DNA of 64,000 nucleotides from Escherichia coli (GTDB lineage Bacteria > Pseudomonadota > Gammaproteobacteria > Enterobacterales > Enterobacteriaceae). Of this stretch, positions 1 through 58,240 are shown in pieces; the first letter of the stretch is position 1, and each line of letters opens with the position of its first letter. Under the pieces are notes generated by a model. That model searched no databases. It saw nothing but the letters and a program-made list of their open reading frames with translations, and was not told the origin of the DNA. A program made the translations under genes and the position numbers. The stretch lies in the NCBI RefSeq assembly GCF_024298765.1, contig NZ_CP101210.1; one strand, given 5' to 3'.

Positions 1-394
1 TATAACGAATGGCTGCGGTCAGGGCTTCAAACATGAGTCCTTTGCCCTGCCATTTTTGCCCAATCGAATAACCGAGATAGCAGGCATGAAAAGAGCCACG
101 AACAACATTGGAAAAATTGGCAACGCCAATAATCTCTTTTTCGTCCGGGTCGAATAAGCCAAAGTAGAAAGCTGAACCTTGTTTATGAAATTCGTTAATC
201 ATCCCCAGCCTGGCCTGCCAGCCTGATGGATAACAGTGGCTTTCGTCGCGCACTGGCTCCCAGGGCTTGAGGAAATGGCGATTCTCTGCGTAATAATCCG
301 CAAGACGCCAGGCATCACGATCATGCACCAGACGCACGACCAGTCGGTCTGTGGTTAAGCGCACTTTTGGCACGTTACTGCGATAGCCAAACAT
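1..394 (-). CDS. rimJ: Ribosomal-protein-S5 alanine N-acetyltransferase RimJ, N-terminal part (3' end lies beyond the window start)
   Basis: The reverse complement of 361-394 reads ATG TTT GGC TAT CGC AGT AAC GTG CCA AAA GTG = [11 protein letters not shown], the RimJ N-terminus as I recall it. The frame stays open to position 1. It is absent from the ORF track because it is truncated. Confidence 0.85.
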
Positions 395-629
395 TCTATA
401 CCTACTCCTTCCCGTAACGTCTTTAATACGCTGTAAGTATTACTATACCTGCGCAACCAGACCCTGTGAAAAGTCCAGAATGTCATTTTCTGCATTATTC
501 ACATATTTGATAAAAACTCTCTATCAAAGCGACGTTTTGATAAAAAAATATTGTCCCCGAAGTGATGGGAAAAGTCTTAGCGGCAATGCAGAATAGAAAG
601 TGCTCATCTTTTATTTCCCGGGAGGGGAA

Positions 630-1838
630 ATGTCCCGCGTATCGCAGGCGAGGAACCTGGGTAAATATTTCCTGCTCATCGATAATATGCTGGTCGTGCT
701 GGGGTTCTTTGTTGTCTTCCCGCTGATCTCTATCCGCTTCGTTGATCAAATGGGCTGGGCCGCCGTCATGGTCGGTATTGCCCTCGGCCTACGCCAGTTT
801 ATTCAGCAAGGTCTGGGTATTTTCGGCGGAGCAATTGCCGACCGCTTTGGTGCCAAACCGATGATTGTTACCGGTATGCTGATGCGTGCCGCCGGATTCG
901 CCACAATGGGTATCGCCCACGAACCGTGGCTATTGTGGTTTTCATGCCTGCTTTCGGGACTCGGCGGCACGTTGTTTGATCCTCCGCGTTCGGCGCTGGT
1001 GGTGAAATTAATCCGTCCACAGCAGCGTGGTCGTTTTTTCTCGCTGTTGATGATGCAGGACAGTGCCGGTGCGGTCATTGGCGCATTGTTGGGGAGCTGG
1101 CTGTTGCAATACGACTTTCGCCTGGTCTGCGCCACAGGGGCAGTTTTGTTTGTGCTGTGTGCAGCGTTCAATGCGTGGTTGTTACCGGCATGGAAACTCT
1201 CCACCGTACGCACGCCCGTTCGCGAAGGCATGACCCGCGTGATGCGCGACAAGCGTTTTGTCACCTATGTACTGACGCTGGCGGGTTACTACATGCTGGC
1301 TGTACAAGTGATGCTGATGCTGCCAATTATGGTCAACGACGTGGCGGGCGCGCCCTCTGCCGTTAAATGGATGTATGCCATTGAAGCGTGTCTGTCGTTA
1401 ACGTTGCTCTACCCTATCGCCCGCTGGAGTGAAAAGCATTTTCGTCTGGAACACCGGTTGATGGCTGGGCTATTGATAATGTCATTAAGCATGATGCCGG
1501 TGGGCATGGTCAGCGGTCTGCAACAACTTTTCACCCTGATTTGTCTGTTTTATATCGGGTCAATCATTGCCGAGCCTGCGCGTGAAACCTTAAGTGCTTC
1601 GCTGGCGGACGCAAGAGCTCGCGGCAGCTATATGGGGTTTAGCCGTCTGGGTCTGGCGATTGGCGGCGCTATTGGTTACATCGGTGGCGGCTGGCTGTTT
1701 GACCTGGGCAAATCGGCGCACCAGCCAGAGCTTCCGTGGATGATGCTGGGCATTATTGGCACCTTCACTTTCCTTGCGCTGGGTTGGCAGTTTAGCCAGA
1801 AACGCGCCGCGCGTCGTTTGCTTGAACGCGACGCCTGA
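630..1838 (+). CDS. mdtH: MFS multidrug efflux transporter MdtH (402 aa)
   Basis: ORF track 600..1838. The internal ATG at 630 gives [21 protein letters not shown]..., recognised as MdtH. The protein is a multi-TM MFS type. Confidence 0.93.
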
Positions 1839-1901
1839 TTTGATACTCCCCCCTGACTCCTCCATACTGAAAGTGAACTGACAGCCAAATGGAGGAGTCA
1901 C

Positions 1902-2549
1902 GTGAAGCTATACATTTACGATCACTGCCCTTACTGCCTCAAAGCCCGCATGATTTTCGGCCTGAAAAATATCCCCGTCGAATTACATGTTCTGCTCAAC
2001 GACGACGCAGAAACACCCACCCGGATGGTCGGTCAAAAACAGGTTCCCATTCTGCAAAAAGATGACAGCCGCTATATGCCAGAAAGCATGGACATCGTTC
2101 ACTATGTCGATAAACTCGACGGCAAACCGTTACTGACCGGCAAACGTTCCCCTGCCATTGAAGAGTGGCTGCGCAAGGTCAATGGCTACGCCAACAAACT
2201 GCTGTTGCCGCGTTTTGCCAAATCGGCATTTGATGAGTTTTCTACTCCTGCCGCGCGCAAATATTTCGTCGACAAGAAAGAGGCCAGCGCGGGTAATTTT
2301 GCCGACCTGCTGGCCCACTCTGACGGTCTGATTAAGAATATCAGCGATGATTTACGTGCGCTGGACAAACTGATCGTCAAACCGAACGCCGTGAATGGCG
2401 AACTTTCGGAAGATGATATTCAGCTATTTCCGCTGCTGCGTAATCTGACGCTGGTAGCCGGAATTAACTGGCCAAGCCGCGTTGCTGATTACCGCGATAA
2501 TATGGCGAAACAGACACAAATCAATTTGTTATCATCAATGGCGATTTAA
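1902..2549 (+). CDS. grxB: Glutaredoxin 2
   Basis: 215-aa ORF with a GTG start. MKLYIYDHCPYCLKARMIFGLKNIP carries the CPYC active site and is recognised as GrxB. Confidence 0.95.
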   Translation: MKLYIYDHCPYCLKARMIFGLKNIPVELHVLLNDDAETPTRMVGQKQVPILQKDDSRYMPESMDIVHYVDKLDGKPLLTGKRSPAIEEWLRKVNGYANKLLLPRFAKSAFDEFSTPAARKYFVDKKEASAGNFADLLAHSDGLIKNISDDLRALDKLIVKPNAVNGELSEDDIQLFPLLRNLTLVAGINWPSRVADYRDNMAKQTQINLLSSMAI

Positions 2550-2682
2550 TCCTGACCCGCCGCGGCAGCCTGTATTCGCGGGTTGCCGCCGTTTTCAGTT
2601 TTTTCTGCTGGCGCGTTTATCGCTGGTGACACATGCTGCGTTGTGTCAGGATATTGACGCAGATTTCATGTCGAGGACTACC

Positions 2683-3243
2683 ATGAACAAGTTTTTATTT
2701 GCCGCTGCATTGATCGTCAGTGGCCTGCTCGTTGGCTGTAATCAACTCACCCAATACACCATCACCGAACAAGAAATTAACCAGTCGCTTGCGAAACATA
2801 ATAATTTCTCAAAAGATATCGGTTTACCCGGCGTGGCTGACGCCCATATTGTTCTGACAAACCTGACCAGCCAAATTGGTCGCGAAGAGCCGAATAAGGT
2901 TACCCTAACCGGAGACGCCAATCTGGACATGAACTCCCTGTTCGGTAGCCAGAAAGCGACCATGAAACTGAAGCTGAAAGCGCTGCCCGTGTTTGATAAA
3001 GAAAAAGGCGCTATCTTCCTGAAAGAGATGGAAGTGGTCGATGCGACGGTACAACCGGAAAAAATGCAAACGGTGATGCAAACGTTGCTTCCCTATTTAA
3101 ACCAGGCATTACGCAATTACTTTAACCAGCAACCTGCTTACGTCCTGCGCGAAGATGGCAGCCAGGGCGAAGCAATGGCGAAGAAACTGGCGAAAGGCAT
3201 TGAAGTGAAGCCAGGCGAAATTGTCATTCCGTTTACTGATTAA
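2683..3243 (+). CDS. yceB: Lipoprotein YceB (186 aa)
   Basis: The internal ATG of ORF 2482..3243 gives MNKFLFAAALIVSGLLVGC, which contains a lipobox (LVGC). Confidence 0.9.
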   Translation: MNKFLFAAALIVSGLLVGCNQLTQYTITEQEINQSLAKHNNFSKDIGLPGVADAHIVLTNLTSQIGREEPNKVTLTGDANLDMNSLFGSQKATMKLKLKALPVFDKEKGAIFLKEMEVVDATVQPEKMQTVMQTLLPYLNQALRNYFNQQPAYVLREDGSQGEAMAKKLAKGIEVKPGEIVIPFTD

Positions 3244-3248
3244 TCACG

Positions 3249-3275
3249 AGGGCGCATTCGCGCCCTTTATTTTTC
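3249..3275 (+). terminator. Rho-independent terminator after yceB
   Basis: The stem AGGGCGC / GCGCCCT has the loop ATTC and is followed by TTATTTTTC. Confidence 0.7.
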
Positions 3276-3348
3276 GTGCAAAGGAAAACGTTTCCGCTTA
3301 TCCTTTGTGTCCGGCAAAAACATCCCTTCAGCCGGAGCATAGAGATTA

Positions 3349-4395
3349 ATGACTGCACCATCCCAGGTATTAAAGATCCGCCGCCCAGACGACTGGCACC
3401 TTCACCTCCGCGATGGCGACATGTTAAAAACTGTCGTGCCGTATACCAGCGAAATTTATGGACGGGCTATCGTAATGCCCAATCTGGCTCCGCCCGTGAC
3501 CACCGTTGAGGCTGCCGTGGCGTATCGCCAGCGCATTCTTGACGCCGTACCTGCCGGGCATGATTTCACCCCATTGATGACCTGTTATTTAACAGATTCG
3601 CTGGATCCTAATGAGCTGGAGCGCGGATTTAACGAAGGCGTGTTCACCGCTGCAAAACTTTACCCGGCAAACGCAACCACTAACTCCAGTCACGGCGTGA
3701 CGTCAGTTGACGCAATCATGCCGGTATTAGAGCGCATGGAAAAAATCGGTATGCCGCTACTGGTGCATGGTGAAGTGACACATGCAGATATCGACATTTT
3801 TGATCGTGAAGCGCGCTTTATAGAAAGCGTGATGGAACCGCTACGCCAGCGTCTGACTGCGCTGAAAGTCGTTTTTGAGCACATCACCACCAAAGACGCT
3901 GCCGACTATGTCCGTGACGGAAATGAACGGCTGGCTGCCACCATCACTCCGCAGCATCTGATGTTTAACCGCAACCATATGCTGGTTGGTGGCGTGCGTC
4001 CGCACCTGTATTGTCTACCCATCCTCAAACGCAATATCCACCAACAGGCATTGCGTGAACTGGTCGCCAGCGGTTTTAATCGCGTATTCCTCGGTACGGA
4101 TTCTGCGCCGCATGCACGTCATCGCAAAGAGAGCAGCTGCGGCTGCGCGGGCTGCTTCAACGCCCCAACCGCGCTGGGCAGTTACGCTACCGTCTTTGAA
4201 GAGATGAATGCTCTGCAGCACTTTGAAGCATTCTGTTCTGTAAACGGCCCACAGTTCTATGGCTTGCCGGTCAACGACACATTCATCGAACTGGTCCGCA
4301 AAGAGCAACAGGTTGCTGAAAGCATCGCATTGACTGATGACACGCTGGTGCCATTCCTCGCCGGGGAAACGGTACGCTGGTCCGTTAAACAATAA
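3349..4395 (+). CDS. pyrC: Dihydroorotase
   Basis: 348-aa ORF starting [26 protein letters not shown], with the HxH metal motif. Recognised as PyrC. Confidence 0.96.
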
Positions 4396-4431
4396 AAATC
4401 GTAGCTTCCTGTTGTCATTAGGTTATTTTAA

Positions 4432-4447
4432 CTGTATAAATAACCAG
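4432..4447 (+). promoter_or_regulatory. LexA (SOS) box upstream of dinI
   Basis: CTGTATAAATAACCAG fits the CTG-N10-CAG SOS-box consensus and lies 22 nt upstream of the dinI ATG. Confidence 0.85.
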
Positions 4448-4468
4448 TATATTCAACAGGGGGCTATT

Positions 4469-4714
4469 ATGCGAATTGAAGTCACCATAGCGAAAACTTC
4501 TCCATTGCCAGCTGGGGCTATTGACGCCCTGGCTGGCGAACTTTCCCGCCGTATTCAGTATGCGTTTCCTGATAATGAAGGCCACGTATCGGTACGTTAT
4601 GCCGCAGCGAATAATTTATCGGTTATTGGCGCGACAAAAGAAGATAAACAGCGCATTAGCGAAATTCTCCAGGAAACGTGGGAAAGCGCCGATGACTGGT
4701 TTGTCAGCGAATAA
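4469..4714 (+). CDS. dinI: DNA damage-inducible protein I (81 aa)
   Basis: The internal ATG of ORF 4337..4714 gives MRIEVTIAKTSPLPAGAIDALAGELSRRIQ..., recognised as DinI. Confidence 0.93.
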   Translation: MRIEVTIAKTSPLPAGAIDALAGELSRRIQYAFPDNEGHVSVRYAAANNLSVIGATKEDKQRISEILQETWESADDWFVSE

Positions 4715-4735
4715 TATGCAGTGATTTTTGTTTTT

Positions 4736-4762
4736 GCCGGGTCGCCCCGGCTTTTTTATTTT
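4736..4762 (+). terminator. Rho-independent terminator after dinI
   Basis: GCCGGG tcgc CCCGGC is followed by TTTTTTATTTT. Confidence 0.8.
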
Positions 4763-5003
4763 ACTTGCGAATTGTGAGTACAAAATTTCTACACTTCCTC
4801 AAAATAATTGCACAATATGCTAAAAAAATATGAATGACATGCTGTTTTATTGTTCATATAAATCTTAAAAGCAAAAATTTATCTGTTCCCCCCTTTAAAA
4901 ATTCGGTGAATACCCTTACTTATTGGTATACTGAAGTTGCTTCAGATAAAAACGCATTGAACCTCGAATAACGTTGTCTAGTAACACGAATTAGGGGGCC
5001 ATG

Positions 5004-5258
5004 ATGGAAAAAAATAATGAAGTCATTCAGACTCATCCGCTCGTAGGGTGGGACATCAGCACCGTTGATAGCTATGATGCGCTGATGTTGCGTTTGCACT
5101 ACCAGACCCCAAATAAGTCCGAGCAGGAAGGGACTGAAGTTGGTCAGACGCTCTGGTTAACCACTGATGTTGCCAGACAATTTATTTCGATATTAGAAGC
5201 AGGAATCGCCAAAATTGAATCCGGTGATTTCCCGGTAAACGAGTATCGGCGTCATTAA
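5004..5258 (+). CDS. bssS: Biofilm regulator BssS (84 aa)
   Basis: ORF 5001..5258. MEKNNEVIQTHPLVGWDISTVDSYDALMLRLHYQ is recognised as BssS. Confidence 0.9.
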   Translation: MEKNNEVIQTHPLVGWDISTVDSYDALMLRLHYQTPNKSEQEGTEVGQTLWLTTDVARQFISILEAGIAKIESGDFPVNEYRRH

Positions 5259-5372
5259 CATGACATGACCATCCACCCAAAAGGCACCTCACCGGTGCCT
5301 TTACCATTTCTGGGTTGTATATCTGCATTCAGTTAATTACTCTGCTTAAACCATGAGAGCAGAGAGAAAAAA

Positions 5373-6491
5373 ATGAAATACGATCTCATCATTATTGGCA
5401 GCGGTTCCGTAGGCGCTGCCGCCGGGTATTATGCAACCCGTGCCGGTTTAAACGTGCTAATGACCGACGCCCATATGCCACCGCATCAACACGGCAGCCA
5501 CCACGGCGATACGCGATTAATTCGCCATGCTTATGGTGAAGGCGAAAAGTATGTCCCGCTGGTTCTCCGCGCGCAAACGCTGTGGGATGAACTCTCCCGC
5601 CACAACGAAGAAGATCCCATTTTTGTACGCTCTGGCGTCATTAACCTTGGCCCGGCTGATTCCACATTTCTCGCCAACGTCGCCCACAGCGCCGAACAAT
5701 GGCAACTCAACGTTGAAAAGCTCGATGCGCAAGGGATTATGGCCCGCTGGCCAGAAATACGCGTCCCGGACAACTACATCGGCTTATTTGAGACTGATTC
5801 CGGCTTTTTACGCAGCGAACTGGCGATTAAAACCTGGATCCAACTGGCGAAGGAAGCGGGCTGTGCGCAGCTGTTCAACTGCCCGGTCACCGCAATTCGT
5901 CATGACGATGATGGCGTAACTATTGAAACGGCTGACGGTGAGTATCAGGCGAAAAAAGCGATTGTCTGCGCGGGAACATGGGTAAAAGACCTGCTCCCGG
6001 AGTTGCCTGTCCAGCCCGTACGCAAAGTATTTGCCTGGTATCAGGCCGATGGGCGCTATAGCGTGAAGAATAAATTCCCGGCGTTTACCGGTGAACTTCC
6101 CAATGGCGATCAATATTATGGTTTTCCGGCAGAAAACGACGCGTTGAAGATTGGCAAACATAACGGAGGCCAGGTTATCCATTCAGCGGATGAACGTGTT
6201 CCGTTTGCGGAAGTGGTCAGCGATGGTTCGGAAGCCTTCCCGTTCTTGCGCAATGTATTGCCGGGTATCGGTTGCTGCCTGTACGGCGCCGCCTGCACCT
6301 ATGATAATTCGCCTGACGAAGATTTTATTATCGATACCCTACCCGGCCACGATAATACACTGCTCATTACCGGCCTGAGTGGGCACGGTTTTAAATTTGC
6401 GTCAGTTTTAGGGGAAATAGCTGCCGATTTTGCGCAAGACAAAAAAAGCGATTTTGATTTGACGCCATTCAGGCTTTCCCGCTTCCAATAA
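5373..6491 (+). CDS. solA: N-methyl-L-tryptophan oxidase
   Basis: 372-aa ORF. The N-terminal [13 protein letters not shown] motif is an FAD-binding Rossmann fold. Recognised as SolA. Confidence 0.95.
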
Positions 6492-16749: not shown

Positions 16750-16848
16750 GCCGGATGCGGCGTGAACGCTTTACCCGACCTACAAAATCTTGCAAAATCA
16801 ATAAATTGCAGGAACGATGTAGGCCTGATAAGCGTAGCGCATCAGGCA
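16750..16848. repeat. REP/BIME element (two opposed REP palindromes)
   Basis: GCCGGATGCGGCGTGAACGCTTTACCCGACCTAC and GTAGGCCTGATAAGCGTAGCGCATCAGGC are canonical E. coli REP sequences. Confidence 0.85.
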
Positions 16849-26316: not shown

Positions 26317-27069
26317 GTTGTCACCCTGGACCTGGTCGTACATTTAAGAAATTAAATCATTTCAACTTGGTTGTTAACGCAACCTGTATTTTGTTAACGC
26401 TGCGTTACGATGGAAAGTATGTCTGCGGAAATATTTTTAATAACTCACCCGCGCGTTGTATTTTTCTTTTTTTGTTCATACCAAAGTATTAAAACTCACG
26501 TAAATACGCTGTTATCTACGCAAAAAATATTTTGTTTTCTTTTAAATCTCCGTTTTCCGCTATCAAAAATCACCAGACAATCATTCTTCTTGCCCGTCGC
26601 TGATTGCTGCGATATGTCTTGCGCACAAGCCGTGACAAACCTCGTCTTTTTGCAGTAAAAAATTGTCCACGGAGGTGTGGAGAAAAAACAAGAACGTTTT
26701 ACATGACGAAAGGACTACACCGAAATATTTTTTATATGCATTATTAGTAAGTTAGCACCATTTGTATGATTTTTTAAAATTGTGCAATAAAAACCAAATG
26801 TACAACTTTTCTATCATTTCTAAACTTAATAAAACCTTAAGATTAACATTTTAATATAACGAGTTACATTTAGTTACATGTTTAACACTTGATTTAAGAT
26901 TTGTAATGGCTAGATTGAAATCAGATGTAATCCATTAGTTTTATATTTTACCCATTTAGGGCTGATTTATTACTACACACAGCAGTGCAACATCTGTCAG
27001 TACTTCTGGTGCTTCTATTTTAGAGGCAGCTGTCAGGTGTGCGATCAATAAAAAAAGCGGGGTTTCATC
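26317..27069. promoter_or_regulatory. Divergent csgBAC/csgDEFG control region (753 bp, AT-rich)
   Basis: This long AT-rich intergenic region lies between csgB and csgD. From the literature it holds the csgD and csgB promoters and many regulator sites. I did not map individual sites. Confidence 0.8.
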
Positions 27070-32431: not shown

Positions 32432-32613
32432 CTACAAAGACCACCAGCATAACAAATCCGTGGTCGGTGGCAAAAAAAGCAAATTTCGCTTATTAAAACT
32501 GCATATTGATTGAAGTTTGAATAATCGAGCGATTTTTTAAAAAAAGTTTGTTGACCTCAGGTCATGATTTCCCTAAATTAGCGCCCGTTCCAGCAAGACA
32601 GGAACGACAATTT

Positions 32614-32701
32614 GGTGAGGTGTCCGAGTGGCTGAAGGAGCACGCCTGGAAAGTGTGTATACGGCAACGTATCGGGGGTTCGAATCCCCCCCTCACCGCC
32701 A
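32614..32701 (+). tRNA. serX: tRNA-Ser (anticodon GGA), 88 nt including CCA
   Basis: The sequence is GGTGAGGTGTCCGAGTGGCTGAAGGAGCACGCCTGGAAAGTGTGTATACGGCAACGTATCGGGGGTTCGAATCCCCCCCTCACCGCCA. The acceptor stem GGTGAGG/CCTCACC pairs, the anticodon loop is CT-GGA-AA, and it has the long variable arm typical of Ser and a T-loop GGTTCGAATCC. Confidence 0.95.
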
Positions 32702-33107
32702 TCTTTAAAGAAGAGCTCGTACGAAAGTACGAGCTTTTTTTTCGTATATTGCACACACCGGGGGGATGAGAAGCCCCGACCGGGGTTCGACAACTGGCGA
32801 CAGCCAGTTGGACAGACCGTGAACGCAGTGAGCGGGCTGCCCGCAGGGCGAGCGAAGCGAGTCAATCCCCCCCTCACCGCCATCTTTAAAGAAGAGCTCG
32901 TACGAAAGTACGGGCTTTTTTTTCGTATATTGCACACACCGGGGGGATGAGAAGCCCCGACCGGGGTTCGACAACTGGCGACAGCCAGTTGGACAGACCG
33001 TGAACGCAGTGAGCGGGCTGCCCGCAGGGCGAGCGAAGCGAGTCAATCCCCCTCACCGCCATCTTTAAAGAAGAGCTCGTACGAAAGTACGGGCTTTTTT
33101 TCGTATA
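32683..33107 (+). repeat. Tandem 181-bp direct repeat (2 full copies plus a third interrupted by an IS) containing the tRNA-Ser 3' end
   Basis: AATCCCCCCCTCACCGCCATCTTTAAAG... starts at 32683, 32864 and 33045. The copies are nearly identical. The third copy has CCCCC instead of CCCCCCC and resumes after the IS at 34418-34447. Confidence 0.9.
32715..32742 (+). terminator. Rho-independent terminator after serX
   Basis: GCTCGTAC gaaa GTACGAGC is followed by TTTTTTTT. The terminator is repeated in each 181-bp unit. Confidence 0.9.
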
Positions 33108-33160
33108 TGACCCGTCCTGAATAGCGTTGACACGTTCCTGACTTAAATCCGGAGAACGTG

Positions 33161-33561
33161 ATGATGACTGAGTTCAAACGCACCCAACGTGATTATCCTC
33201 TATCCTTTAAAATAGCTGTTGTTGAGCAGGTTGAAAAAGGCGAGATGACCTATAAACAGGCCCAGCAGCGGTATGGCATTCAGGGGCGCTCCACCGTTCT
33301 TGTCTGGTTACGTAAATTGGCCGGCTTGACTGGAGTCCTGGACTTCCTGACCTGGTGAAGAGGAAACTGCCTGTGACTCAGACAACTATCCCGCTCACAC
33401 CCGAGCAAAGAATCAGGGAACTTGAAGCGCAGCTTGAGCTGGCGAACCAGAAAGCTGAGTTTTTTGAGTCAGTTATCAATGTCCTTAAAAATGATTACGG
33501 GGTGAGTATCGTAAAAAAGCGGCCCGGCAAGTCCTCGCGCAAAGTCCGGCCCCCAAAATAA
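33161..33561 (+). pseudogene. IS3-family orfA (HTH plus leucine zipper), apparently frameshifted
   Basis: Frame 1 reads MMTEFKRTQRDYPLSFKIAVVEQVEKGEMTYKQAQQRYGIQGRSTVLVWLRK and then stops at 33358. The sequence continues in another frame as (I)GRLDWSPGLPDLVKRKLPVTQ...VKKRPGKSSRKVRPPK. This is consistent with a 1-nt deletion near 33317. Confidence 0.7.
33513..33519 (+). promoter_or_regulatory. Programmed -1 ribosomal frameshift heptamer A AAA AAG
   Basis: The heptamer is in the orfA frame as GTA AAA AAG. The -1 frame is continuous with orfB (33564 frame). Confidence 0.75.
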
Positions 33562-33563
33562 CT

Positions 33564-34414
33564 GTGACGCGTGCATGTCTGTTCCTGGGACACAGCAGAC
33601 AGGCATGGTATCAGGACAACACAAGGCGCAGAAAACGGCAGGAACATCATGCTCAGGTTCTTGATTTTGTTGCCCGTGTCAGATGTCGTCAGCCCCGAAT
33701 CGGTGCGCGTAAGCTGCACTATCTGCTGAACACTCAGGCCGATAAAAGGCTGAATATCGGGCGAGACCGCCTGTTTAACCTGCTCGATGAATACCGACTC
33801 CTGGTGCCAGTAAAACGGGCATATCACAAAACTACCAACAGTCATCATCGCTTCTACCGACATCCAAACCTGCTTAAACCAGGCCCTGAACAGGTTACCG
33901 CTCTTGAACCAGAACAGGTCTGGGTCGCCGATATTACTTACCTTCCACTGCGCAATGGTACGGCCTATCTGAGTCTGGTCACCGATGCCTGCTCCAGAAA
34001 AATTATGGGCTACCATGTTGGGGAAAACCTGCAGACAGAAAATGTGGTAAAAGCGTTCAGACAGGCGCTGAGGCTGAGAAAAACGACGAGTCCCCTGGTG
34101 CATCATTCTGACAGGGGCTGCAATACTGTTCAGCGCTCTATCAGTCAGTTCATGAAAGAAATGGAATAACCTGTTCAATGACGGATGGTTATGACTGCTA
34201 CCAGAACGCACTGGCTGAGCGAATAAACGGTATCCTGAAAGATGAGTTTTTACTCTCGCGTCCTGCAGACCTGGCGCAGGCCCGGGAAATGGTCAAAGAG
34301 TCCGTGGCAATTTATAACCATGAGCGGCCACATCTGGCTCTGAAATACAAAACGCCCGATGACGTTCATCAGGCGTTTTACAGACAGAAAAGTGTCAACT
34401 TATATCAGGACTAG
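33564..34414 (+). pseudogene. IS3-family orfB (DDE transposase), frameshifted in a G-run
   Basis: ORF 33564..34169 ends ...HHSDRGCNTVQ...*. The other frame reads GLQYCSALYQSVHERNGITCSMTDGYDCYQNALAERING... (ORF 34178..34414). This is consistent with a 1-nt loss in GGGG at 34114-34117. Confidence 0.75.
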
Positions 34415-34464
34415 TCAATATTGCACACACCGGGGGGATGAGAAGCCCCGACCGGGGTACTTAG

Positions 34465-35151
34465 TTAATGCAACGGTTCACCCTTTGTCGCCGCGGCTAA
34501 TGGGCGAATTTTGTCACGGGTATCCCAGACCGGAGGGATTTCATCCAATTTAGTGACAGAAGCTCGTACAAAAGGCACCCGTGCAATAGTCATAATCGTA
34601 TTCAACCAACGGTCACGAATAATGCGATCTGCCCTTTCATGACTCGGATCATCCAGCTCAATAACACAGACTATTTTGTTGTTCTTCTTTGAAACCAGAA
34701 CATAATCCATTGCCATTCCATTATAAATTGCAAAGAAACGCTTTCTTTCTTCTTCGCTAAACTCGGGTTGTTCTGGAAAGTTGATCAAGCGCCCCAGAGA
34801 GACCTGGCAATGGATATGACAATAATGTCCAAACCATTTCTCCAGATTATCAAAATAGATTTTTTCACAACGCGTAATTAACCACTCTTTTCCTTCCAAT
34901 AAAATACCTTCGGCAACCATTCCATGAAATAACTCATCTCGTTCTTGCCAACGAGAATCACGATAGGTTTTCTGCGGTGTATAGCTCCTTGTCGACGCCT
35001 TAGCAGCAGGGGGAGTTGCAGATGAAGGGACTGGTTGCGATTTAGAGATGATCACCGATGAGGCAACTTTTCGGAGTGTCAATTTTCTGGCAACAACAAA
35101 ACCGGCGACAAATGCAATTGTCAAACAAGTTACAAAAGCCATAAAGCTCAT
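34465..35151 (-). CDS. Hypothetical membrane-anchored protein with a DUF2726-like (endonuclease-fold) C-terminal domain, 228 aa
   Basis: The N-terminal TM segment is FMAFVTCLTIAFVAGFVVA. The C-terminal MDYVLVSKKNNKIVCVIELDDPSHERADRIIRDRWLNTIMTIARVPFVR resembles the DUF2726 pattern as I recall it. This was not verified. Confidence 0.6.
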   Translation of the reverse strand: MSFMAFVTCLTIAFVAGFVVARKLTLRKVASSVIISKSQPVPSSATPPAAKASTRSYTPQKTYRDSRWQERDELFHGMVAEGILLEGKEWLITRCEKIYFDNLEKWFGHYCHIHCQVSLGRLINFPEQPEFSEEERKRFFAIYNGMAMDYVLVSKKNNKIVCVIELDDPSHERADRIIRDRWLNTIMTIARVPFVRASVTKLDEIPPVWDTRDKIRPLAAATKGEPLH

Positions 35152-35667
35152 AATTAATTTTCACCTATCCATGTTGATTATATTTCATTACCAACGTTAC
35201 TCGCTGTAGCGTGTTACATGCCAACAATTCAACGATCAATATATAGTTAGTATCATGTTTTTATTATTACAACCACCCCTATTTTGCCATTGCGGCTTGC
35301 CTTCCACAAAAAATAAAAACACAAAACATTAGCCAAAGAATTAATTAAGATTAACCTGACATTTTTAATGTTATCCCTAAAAAATATAATCAGGAGAATA
35401 TATTCGGTGTTAATCAGTCAGTCAAATTTTGGCTCATTGTTGATTAAACCTCATACGCAAAATTGGCACCAGACCTCCTGTACAGGTTGAATGGCTGGAA
35501 AAAGATAGGCAAAAAACTCTCCGCGCTGGCGGCATTACATTGGTCGCGTGCTATGACGAAAAATGCCTGGTAAAAGTATCTAAACCAGAATTAATTTCAG
35601 CTTATCAACACGCTCAAAGTCGCCCCCCAGAACGTTAACCTGAAGTGAAAGTCTTTGCTGTTAATGA

Positions 35668-35697
35668 AATAAAACAAAGCCCGGTTCGCCCGGGCTC
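35668..35697 (-). terminator. Rho-independent terminator after phoH
   Basis: On the minus strand, AGCCCGG gcgaa CCGGGCT is followed by TTGTTTTATTT. Confidence 0.8.
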
Positions 35698-35713
35698 TGC
35701 GCCGATAATACAC

Positions 35714-36637
35714 TTAACTGTATGCATGTAGCGTACGTTGGCAAAGTGCCGAACGTACGCAATCCTCTTTACCGAATCGGACGATCCCGACCATTTCATC
35801 TTCTTCGAAACGTTCCAGCGCGTCACTTAATCCGGAGCGCACGCCGCGAGGCAAATCGCATTGCGTGATATCACCGTTGACGATAACCGTCACGTTCTCC
35901 CCGAGGCGGGTTAAAAACATTTTCATTTGCGCGGCAGTCACATTCTGCGCCTCGTCAAGAATGACGACTGCATTTTCAAAGGTACGTCCACGCATATAGG
36001 CGAACGGCGCAATTTCCACCTTCCCTATTTCCGGTCGCAGGCAGTACTGCATAAAGGAAGCCCCTAAGCGCCGAACCAGCACGTCGTAGACCGGGCGAAA
36101 ATAGGGAGCAAACTTTTCTGCGATATCACCAGGTAAGAAGCCAAGATCTTCATCGGCTTGCAGAACTGGACGGGTGACGATAATCCTGTCGACATCCTTA
36201 TGTATCAGGGCCTCTGCCGCTTTTGCTGCGCTGATCCAGGTTTTTCCGCACCCGGCTTCGCCCGTGGCGAATATCAGCTGCTTACTCTCAATAGCCTTCA
36301 GATAGTGCAATTGCGCTTCATTTCGCGCGAGGATGGGCGAGGTATCGCGACTATCGCGGGCCATACCAATGGCTTCTACGCCGCTCATTTGCACAAGCGA
36401 GGTGACCGATTCTTCTTCACGCTGCTTATGGCTGCGCGAATCCCGTCTCAGCACACGTTTTGCCTCGCGACGAGCTTTGATCACTGCTTTTTGTCTTCCC
36501 ATGGAGAGCACCTTGAGTTGTTTGTATTCATCACACGCGCCGTTGGCAGCGCGATTATGCGCACGAACATCAGAGGGTTGGCTTCCTTGTAAGCCATAGT
36601 TTGCTTTTGGATAAAATGCCGAAAAACGGCTACGCAC
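35714..36637 (-). CDS. phoH: PhoH, phosphate-starvation-inducible ATPase
   Basis: ORF 35714..36637 starts at GTG. An ATG at 36502 (MGRQKAVIKARREAKR...) would give 262 aa. The protein has a Walker A motif GEAGCGKT. The start is uncertain. Confidence 0.9.
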   Translation of the reverse strand: MRSRFSAFYPKANYGLQGSQPSDVRAHNRAANGACDEYKQLKVLSMGRQKAVIKARREAKRVLRRDSRSHKQREEESVTSLVQMSGVEAIGMARDSRDTSPILARNEAQLHYLKAIESKQLIFATGEAGCGKTWISAAKAAEALIHKDVDRIIVTRPVLQADEDLGFLPGDIAEKFAPYFRPVYDVLVRRLGASFMQYCLRPEIGKVEIAPFAYMRGRTFENAVVILDEAQNVTAAQMKMFLTRLGENVTVIVNGDITQCDLPRGVRSGLSDALERFEEDEMVGIVRFGKEDCVRSALCQRTLHAYS

Positions 36638-57894: not shown

Positions 57895-58240
57895 GCCTGA
57901 TGCGACGCTTAACGCGTCTTATCAGGCCCACAAAAAGCACTGTTCCCGTAGGCCGGATAAGGCGTTCATGCCGCATCCGGCAACTGCGCCATAATGCCTG
58001 ATGCGACGCTTAACGCATCTTATCAGGCCCACAAAAAGCACTGTTCCCGTAGGCCGGATAAGGCGTTCTCGCCGCATCCGGCAACTGCGCCATAATGCCT
58101 GATGCGACGCTTAACGCATCTTATCAGGCCCACAAAAAGCACTGTTCCCGTAGGCCGGATAAGGCGTTCTCGCCGCATCCGGCAACTGCGCACTAATGCC
58201 TGATGCGACGCCTGCCGCGTCTTATCAGGCCTACAAACGG
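57895..58240. repeat. BIME array: about 3.4 tandem copies of a 101-bp unit built from REP palindromes
   Basis: GCCTGATGCGACGCTTAACGC(G/A)TCTTATCAGGCC...GTAGGCCGGATAAGGCGTT...GCCGCATCCGGCA starts at 57895, 57996, 58097 and 58198. Confidence 0.9.

Follow-up and report, generated by a model that had tools for sequence, protein, structure and literature searches.

The 181-bp tandem units found directly behind serX, a tRNA-Ser(GGA) gene of Escherichia coli, are very probably RtT elements which grow in number by local exchange and would be transcribed by read-through. The RtT family has already been described, is represented in Rfam and is annotated in RefSeq, and the array does not constitute a novel att-site structure. 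K-12 carries it too, and in E. coli it counts among the standard features with public annotation. The analysed stretch of DNA, hereafter the window, comprises 64,000 nucleotides of contig NZ_CP101210.1.

Layout and identity of the array behind serX

ARAGORN detected a single tRNA gene in the window, serX (32614..32701, plus strand; Rfam tRNA score 53.8 bits), identified it as tRNA-Ser(GGA) and called none within the repeat units. As in K-12, serX is flanked by ghrA. A sigma-70-like promoter candidate (TTGACC, 17 nt, TAAATT), assigned to serX on the basis of its position upstream of the tRNA, is located at 32551..32579 on the plus strand; it was the sole candidate of the consensus promoter scan, which returned none inside the array units. 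Tandem Repeats Finder (TRF) reported a repeat at 32683-33108 with a period of 181, 2.4 copies, 98% matches, 1% indels and a score of 824, in agreement with the initial annotation, which had described a 181-bp repeat of tRNA 3′ end, terminator and GC-rich module. The 3′-terminal 19 nt of serX (32683-32701), AATCCCCCCCTCACCGCCA, are present again at 32864, and a 17-nt version of the tRNA end, with CCCCC (two C fewer), starts at 33045. A unit contains an intrinsic terminator, a spacer, a GC-rich module of ~120 nt and the last 19 nt of the tRNA, from AAT of the T-loop through CCA. Each copy of the tRNA end is followed by the hairpin AAAGAAGAGCTCGTACGAAAGTACG(A/G)GC, then by a T-run and a GC-rich stretch. 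The terminator stem reads acgAgc in copy 1 and acgGgc in copies 2 and 3, and the T-runs of copies 1, 2 and 3 are T8, T8 and T7; these differences, as well as the CCCCC of copy 3, had all been recorded correctly.

The individual features, all on the plus strand, follow one another closely. Intrinsic terminator 1 (32707..32742) folds into a perfect hairpin, AAAGAAGAGCUCGUAC/GUACGAGCUUUUUUUU, with an A-tract and U8. RtT element 1, composed of the GC-rich module and the 19-nt tRNA 3′ end, occupies 32746..32882. Intrinsic terminator 2 (32888..32923), as read from its sequence, is a G·U wobble variant and precedes RtT element 2 (32927..33061), in which the C-run is cut to CCCCC. Unit 3 begins with terminator 3 (T7) and a spacer (33062..33107; sequence and TRF), as far as the point where an insertion sequence (IS) has entered. 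The rest of this unit (34418..34458) includes the end of the spacer and the first ~28 nt of a third module (GGGGGGATGAGAAGCCCCGACCGGGG). Copy 3 had been rightly described as interrupted at 33108 and resuming at 34418, but it ends at ~34458 and not at ~34447. Beyond ~34458 unit 3 breaks into strain-variable DNA, and the break in O111:H8 is identical.

In the Rfam scan, unit 1 was recognized as RF00391 (RtT RNA), with 46.3 bits against a gathering score of 45 over model positions 1-130. Unit 2 matched the full model with 43.8 bits, just under the gathering score, because its C-run is shortened. Equivalent units in RefSeq genomes (K-12, E7) are labelled 'RtT sRNA' by PGAP. The founding member of the family is located at tyrT: the repeat was reportedly described by Egan and Landy in 1978, and Bosl and Kersten are said to have described in 1991 the rtT RNA released from it. 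PMC3318445, PMC7542023 and PMC11623569 cite the 1991 paper, and in PMC7542023, three decades after the description, the function of RtT is still called unknown. Amino-acid starvation, in relA+ and relA- backgrounds, is reported as the condition relevant to rtT. Our literature search retrieved no paper naming RtT together with serX, and papers on pseudouridine and on RNase E tiling touch on tyrT/tpr just briefly.

Comparison with the tyr locus of K-12, where the order is tyrT, RtT, tyrV and then three RtT with a period of 178 bp, revealed a homologous module. Units of tyrT and serX have a common order of motifs, namely, a purine-rich 5′ segment, TGAGAA, GAC, GGTTCGAC and central hairpins, followed in the 3′ part by CCCGnAGGGCGA, GCGAAGCG and the last 19 nt of the adjacent tRNA. 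In both, the module is arranged in tandem units of ~180 bp (181 bp at serX according to TRF, 178 bp at tyrT and 179 bp at the paralogous serW) on the same strand as the tRNA and directly 3′ of it, and the terminal stem is formed by the purine-rich 5′ segment and the tRNA-derived 3′ segment. The serX units accordingly end in the 3′ end of serX itself, including CCA. The two types differ in several respects. Units of serX carry the tRNA-Ser 3′ end, and their four T-stem-like segments read GGGGG/CCCC/GGGG/CCCCC, whereas those of tyrT read GAAGG/CTTC/AAGG/CCTTC. The central hairpins are longer in the serX type, and every CCA is followed by an intrinsic terminator, which the tyrT units lack. Finally, the arginine-rich Tpr frame of 29-33 aa has no counterpart at serX, where the frame of the unit is only 18 aa. 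Since, in addition, the Tpr frame is intact in only one tyrT unit, coding is not conserved, and we rejected a coding role for the module.

The same scan produced a sub-threshold match to the Xanthomonas sRNA sX4 (RF02223; 32.7 bits against a gathering score of 70), which extends from tRNA-Ser across the spacer into the beginning of the module (GGGGGGAUGAGA). Judging from sequence similarity, this hints that a tRNA-Ser read-through RNA of a comparable kind may exist elsewhere.

Structure of the module and its association with tRNA genes

The unit was predicted to fold into the terminator hairpin and a four-way, cloverleaf-like structure (MFE −80.7 kcal/mol, z = −6.0). In the closing stem of the latter, GGGGGGAU of the G-rich 5′ segment pairs with the tRNA-derived AUCCCCCC.

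To collect homologs, we ran a motif scan over one genome per bacterial species and obtained at least 120 loci with at least 184 RtT copies, a motif-biased sample. The matches listed come mostly from Enterobacteriaceae, Erwiniaceae and Pectobacteriaceae, with a few from Pseudoalteromonas and Halopseudomonas. For the 184 copies listed, the nearest upstream tRNA gene on the same strand is Tyr(GTA) in 86 cases, Ser(GGA) in 69, Ser(GCT) in six and Ser(CGA) in one; the other 22 copies have no such gene because of contig ends or chance matches. Among these matches, which were sampled by motif, RtT thus appears to be restricted to tRNA genes with a long variable arm. Most of the 184 copies (120 loci) have as their 3′ end 18-19 nt of their own tRNA. 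Moreover, in species with a variant T-stem, the RtT 5′ segment and an inner hairpin change along with it, as could be followed for CCCCG in E. whittamii, CCCTCCC in a Klebsiella and CCCCTCTC in Scandinavium. Neither the restriction to class II tRNAs nor this four-way tracking of the T-stem was found in the literature examined.

Cross-family MAFFT alignment misaligns the central hairpins of the Tyr and Ser types; therefore, pairs were counted in the Ser subfamily, using 21 non-redundant serX-type copies from different genera and the structure computed by RNAalifold. For these copies 37 pairs are predicted, and 96.9% of the cells are paired. Compensatory double changes occur in 14 of the 37 pairs, compared to 4.7 ± 1.2 in column shuffles (0/500 reach 14) and to 1-3 in controls with slid partners. 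Pairs of helix 1, the terminal stem, include GC/AU/CG exchanges. Covariation in this stem could be partly copied from the T-arm of the tRNA and not result from selection on RtT RNA, but the inner hairpins are exempt from this concern. Three of the inner helices covary, so that the tRNA-derived strand is not the sole source of the signal. Retention of the fold across genera through compensatory changes shows selection on the module, which sets it apart from decaying scar DNA. Taken together, strong covariation and tracking of the cognate tRNA suggest that RtT merits experiment.

These results also bear on whether the units might be pseudogenes of a tandem-duplicated tRNA gene, degenerate everywhere except at the 3′ end. 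Such an origin could account for the T-arm-like pieces matching the local tRNA (GGGGTTCGA and AATCCCCC at serX, AAGGTTCGA and AATCCTTCC at tyrT) and for the RtT that stands between two intact tRNA-Tyr genes at tyrT. However, the core of ~80 nt (TGAGAA...CCCGnAGGGCGA...GCGAAGCG) has no counterpart in either tRNA. Because this core is common to Tyr- and Ser-linked elements, the elements share an ancestor among themselves and not with the tRNAs. Pseudogenes would also not be expected to show conservation with covariation, ARAGORN calls no tRNA-like gene in the units, and there are no graded intermediates among the 120 loci listed. We therefore consider descent from decayed tRNA copies highly improbable and retain the identification of the units as RtT elements.

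As to what such elements might do, we can offer only a tentative proposal, which we ourselves hold to be rather doubtful: RtT would form a dedicated class of structured RNAs that mimic tRNA, are found only with the genes of class II tRNAs (Tyr, Ser) and serve as a decoy or sensor tunable by dosage. The four T-stem-like segments, co-evolving with the neighbouring tRNA, would allow two alternative pairings. The target would be a factor that binds T-arms or tRNA 3′ ends, and the strain-variable number of copies (0 to at least 6) would set the dose.

Terminators and transcription of the modules

Terminator 1 folds into a 16-bp hairpin, which includes A/U-tract pairing, followed by U8. At the sequence level, the intrinsic terminator is recognizable as a GC-containing hairpin with a U-tract that is conserved across genera. 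A hairpin with a T-run after CCA is present in 95% of 40 distinct Ser(GGA) spacers, where variation of the stem is compensatory, but in only 2% of 56 Tyr-linked spacers. Flanked by an A-tract and, opposite to it, a T-tract, the terminator looks bidirectional in the folded model. It should be noted that a simple terminator scan listed the unit hairpins on the minus strand only, presumably because the stem runs on into the T-tract through A-U pairs; for the plus strand, the terminator was read from the fold and the spacer survey. The first 41 nt of the unit, a hairpin and U-tract after CCA, resemble the rho-independent terminators of tRNA operons, from which the unit differs in that the terminator makes up only a quarter of it and the rest is the RtT module.

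One may then ask whether the terminator is what has been selected, as a bidirectional fail-safe or insulator, provided in tandem copies, between the strongly transcribed tRNA gene and a convergent gene, with the module as a passenger. The perfect hairpin with its A-tract and U8 is found behind every CCA, the frequency and compensatory variation of hairpins in Ser(GGA) spacers fit such a role, and a convergent neighbour is present both at serX (DUF2726 or ycdU) and at serW (clpA). On the other hand, tyrT-type units keep the module and the tandem arrangement despite the near absence of the terminator (the 2% given above), the module itself covaries structurally and hence is no neutral passenger, and many genomes have zero complete modules at serX. 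An array selected primarily for termination is thus unlikely, although a contribution of bidirectional fail-safe termination is a reasonable alternative in part.

The position of the terminators has consequences for expression. Since every serX and serW module is located behind an intrinsic terminator, module RNA can be made only through read-through, and the presence of a strong terminator before each module argues that little module RNA is produced from the serX promoter. By analogy with tyrT, the modules would be transcribed only when RNA polymerase reads through the terminator behind each CCA. They would then be released by tRNA 3′-end maturation enzymes, because each module ends in a genuine tRNA 3′ end; the putative RNA 3′ end is ...CACCGCCA.

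Copy number, islands and the neighbourhood of the array

The array region has matches in 5425 of 5426 complete E. coli genomes. The initial annotation was not aware of an array at serX in K-12, yet K-12 strain MGY has three full modules and a partial fourth at this locus, and four modules are present in other K-12 records, C600 and DH5alpha. The number of modules in K-12 (3-4) therefore exceeds that in the window (two and a partial third). Paralogous arrays can be even longer, as illustrated by serW (infA-serW-clpA), which has six units in strain JNE23-011.

To assess the variation in copy number, we searched 60 evenly sampled genomes with an artificial query composed of the upstream flank, the tRNA and six units. 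The 38 rows that include the serX flank fall into span classes corresponding to 242 + n × 181 + partial unit, from which we infer the number of modules. Spans of 303-344 bp (12 rows) correspond to zero complete modules, 484-505 bp (six rows) to one, 665-687 bp (eight rows) to two, 846-847 bp (four rows) to three and 1027-1049 bp (four rows) to four. Two rows with spans of 587-588 bp contain one module and a long partial one, the single row of 407 bp is unclear (0-1 modules), and the longest span, 1332 bp (one row), contains at least six modules. The number of copies at serX thus varies between 0 and at least 6, each step measuring 181 bp, bearing out the variation that the initial annotation had suggested looking for, and the two modules and partial third of the window are in the middle of the range among the sampled genomes.

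Tandem 181-bp repeats may collapse or expand in assembly, and the K-12 records disagree with each other (three versus four modules), which indicates that the array is collapse-prone. Being also highly polymorphic, its copy number should not be trusted in short-read assemblies. Nevertheless, the chance that the array of the window is an assembly artefact and its true copy number is one is negligible: multi-copy arrays occur in thousands of complete genomes and form discrete 181-bp classes, the identical array with the IS is present in the complete genome of strain E7, and the junction with the IS is found in 61 genomes.

Identity of the units depends on the array from which they come. Within one array it is 98.3-100% (the six serW units reach 99.4-100%); it amounts to about 98% when serX arrays are compared among strains and to 92-93% between serX and serW arrays. 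In addition, some variants are array-specific and common to all units of one array. At the base after CCA+1, for instance, all units of the window and of E7 have C, whereas all K-12 units have A. Near-identity within arrays, array-specific variants and 181-bp steps together point to local tandem amplification and homogenisation and not to independent insertions. Simple tandem duplication, which the initial annotation had kept as a fallback, is thus the better account of the repeat. The array would expand and contract as its units undergo unequal homologous recombination or replication slippage with one another. The 19-bp identity between the end of the tRNA and the end of a single downstream RtT may have supplied the initial direct repeats. 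Once duplicated, a unit would offer 181 bp of homology for further exchange, and repeated exchange would hold the units of one array nearly identical.

The explanation initially preferred was a different one, namely, that the array is a stack of att scars, in which each unit represents the decayed remnant of a separate element inserted at the 3′ end of serX. Tyrosine integrases that target tRNA genes use identity blocks extending from the T-loop to CCA, and the repeated piece spans the same part of the tRNA. Likewise, the attL/attR sites of tRNA-integrated islands leave part of the tRNA 3′ end repeated behind the intact gene. Furthermore, serX is a genuine integration site of islands, and the array is then located at the far end of the island. 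In strain 124611, the toxin-antitoxin end of a CP4-like island lies directly behind the serX tRNA, and in O111:H8 08-4455 and AR_0069 a tyrosine integrase gene is found ~160 bp upstream of a tRNA fragment and RtT array. The integrase of the serX island is of the WP_000279869 type. In about 12 of the 60 sampled genomes the array is displaced from the tRNA, the best match starting at the tRNA fragment.

Several observations nevertheless speak against this scenario. In the one island type analysed, attR shares with the tRNA a core of ~15 nt, TCCCCCTCACCGCCA (5 C), and not the 19-nt AATCCCCCCCTCACCGCCA of the units; the island-side DNA is unrelated to the module, and at the other junction the DNA behind the tRNA bears no relation to the unit terminator. 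A chimeric query joining the RtT end to the one island left end tested was covered to at least 80% in 0 of 5426 genomes, and all island junctions detected in this search are of the genuine tRNA with the island. The 162 bp between the tRNA-end repeats contain the terminator and the RtT module only, with no integrase, integrase remnant or attP arm. The 181-bp unit has no match in 50,697 phage records, and its plasmid matches are confined to 40 records, 36 of which are non-mobilizable and many of which are of chromosome-fragment or chromosome size. Nor would independent decayed scars be expected to be near-identical with identical boundaries, to show cross-genus conservation with compensatory changes, or to recur with the same architecture at tyrT/tyrV and serW. 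Combined with the RF00391 identity, these results largely refute the att-scar reading for the array of the window, and we judge it very improbable. The co-occurrence of arrays with island boundaries, which the initial annotation had expected, does exist, but its cause is that the genuine tRNA serves as insertion site for islands, with the array already in place downstream; no island of the type tested was found at an RtT unit.

The element which splits unit 3 is a 1310-bp insertion sequence of the IS3 family (33108..34417, plus strand). It has TG...CA termini, an rve (DDE) domain (E-value = 6e−18) and a 3-bp target duplication, ATA, at 33105-33107 and 34418-34420. Its transposase is degenerate (frameshifted), in line with the PGAP annotation in strain E7 ('IS3 family transposase, frameshifted'). 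The array-IS junction of the window is found in 61 of the 5426 complete genomes, chiefly those of avian isolates, and the element entered unit 3 later, in a lineage-restricted event.

The array is followed in the window by a convergent DUF2726 gene (34465..35151, minus strand; Pfam DUF2726, E-value = 1.8e−18), then by phoH and efeB, the same as in strain E7. At the position of the DUF2726 gene, K-12 has ycdU, ymdE, IS3, dgcT and pgaABCD, while in strain MS 57-2 dgcT is located directly behind serX without a complete module. The final, truncated module is cut at one point in the K-12 context and at another in that of the window; the distal end of the array thus likewise delimits strain-variable DNA. 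With islands inserting upstream and variable DNA adjoining downstream, the serX array is a useful landmark for delimiting serX islands.

RtT modules and class II tRNA genes

A motif scan of one genome per bacterial species yielded a sample of at least 120 loci (L007-L126), biased by the search motif. Among the matches listed, the tRNA upstream of RtT copies, where identifiable, always belonged to class II (long variable arm) and was Tyr(GTA), Ser(GGA), Ser(GCT) or Ser(CGA). In several Enterobacter-like genomes among the same matches, the final array unit is truncated within the 19-mer that repeats the tRNA 3′ end, between AATCCCCCCC and GGTGC.

An RtT array is also present at serW, a second tRNA-Ser(GGA) gene. 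In E. coli JNE23-011, serW is located between infA and clpA and is accompanied by six tandem RtT units (4008-5169 of the serW locus L127). These units are 179 bp long and share 99.4-100% identity with each other and about 93% identity with the serX units.

At window 32603-32771 (+), the sX4 family of Xanthomonas sRNAs gives an Rfam match of 32.7 bits, below its gathering score of 70, that covers the entire tRNA-Ser, the spacer and the opening bases of the RtT module. This match suggests that sX4 could likewise be an RNA formed by read-through of a tRNA-Ser gene.

Variation at and downstream of serX

The length of the serX array is inconsistent among K-12-derived records (complete-genome matches H113 and H125-H127, and the K-12 locus L001). 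Three modules are found in MGY and 5FA, and four in the MG1655 record NZ_CP010442.1, C600 and DH5alpha. This discrepancy reflects either real variation on a laboratory timescale or assembly collapse.

Comparison of window 34459-36637 with the serX loci of K-12 (L001), O111:H8 08-4455 (L004), AR_0069 (L005) and a further strain (L128) revealed at least three different downstream contexts. In the window strain, ycdU-ymdE-dgcT-pgaABCD is absent between serX and phoH, and a DUF2726 gene is found in that place. The break point of the truncated RtT module also differs between the K-12 and window contexts.

Genomic islands are usually arranged with the tRNA gene followed by the integrase gene. In the serX island (4638-6014 in both L004 and L005) this order is reversed: the tyrosine integrase gene lies at the opposite end of the island from the intact tRNA and is transcribed away from attR, the island junction beside the tRNA fragment and RtT array.

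Other Rfam matches in the window

A strong, full-length match to Yersinia antisense sRNA 251 (Ysr251) at window 35719-35912 (+) scores 192.8 bits, well above the gathering score of 100. It is antisense to the phoH ORF (35714-36637, −), whose 3′ end it overlaps. Above-threshold matches to the PyrC leader (window 3299-3348), ES036 (CssrF; 16784-16826) and the ES056 sRNA (26923-27014) are ordinary E. coli features, which help to locate the window in the region running from pyrC through serX to phoH. Finally, three tandem matches to naRNA4/CssrE (RF02564; window 57951-58231, +), scoring 75-81 bits each and spaced with a 101-bp period, represent a further intergenic tandem repeat within the window.
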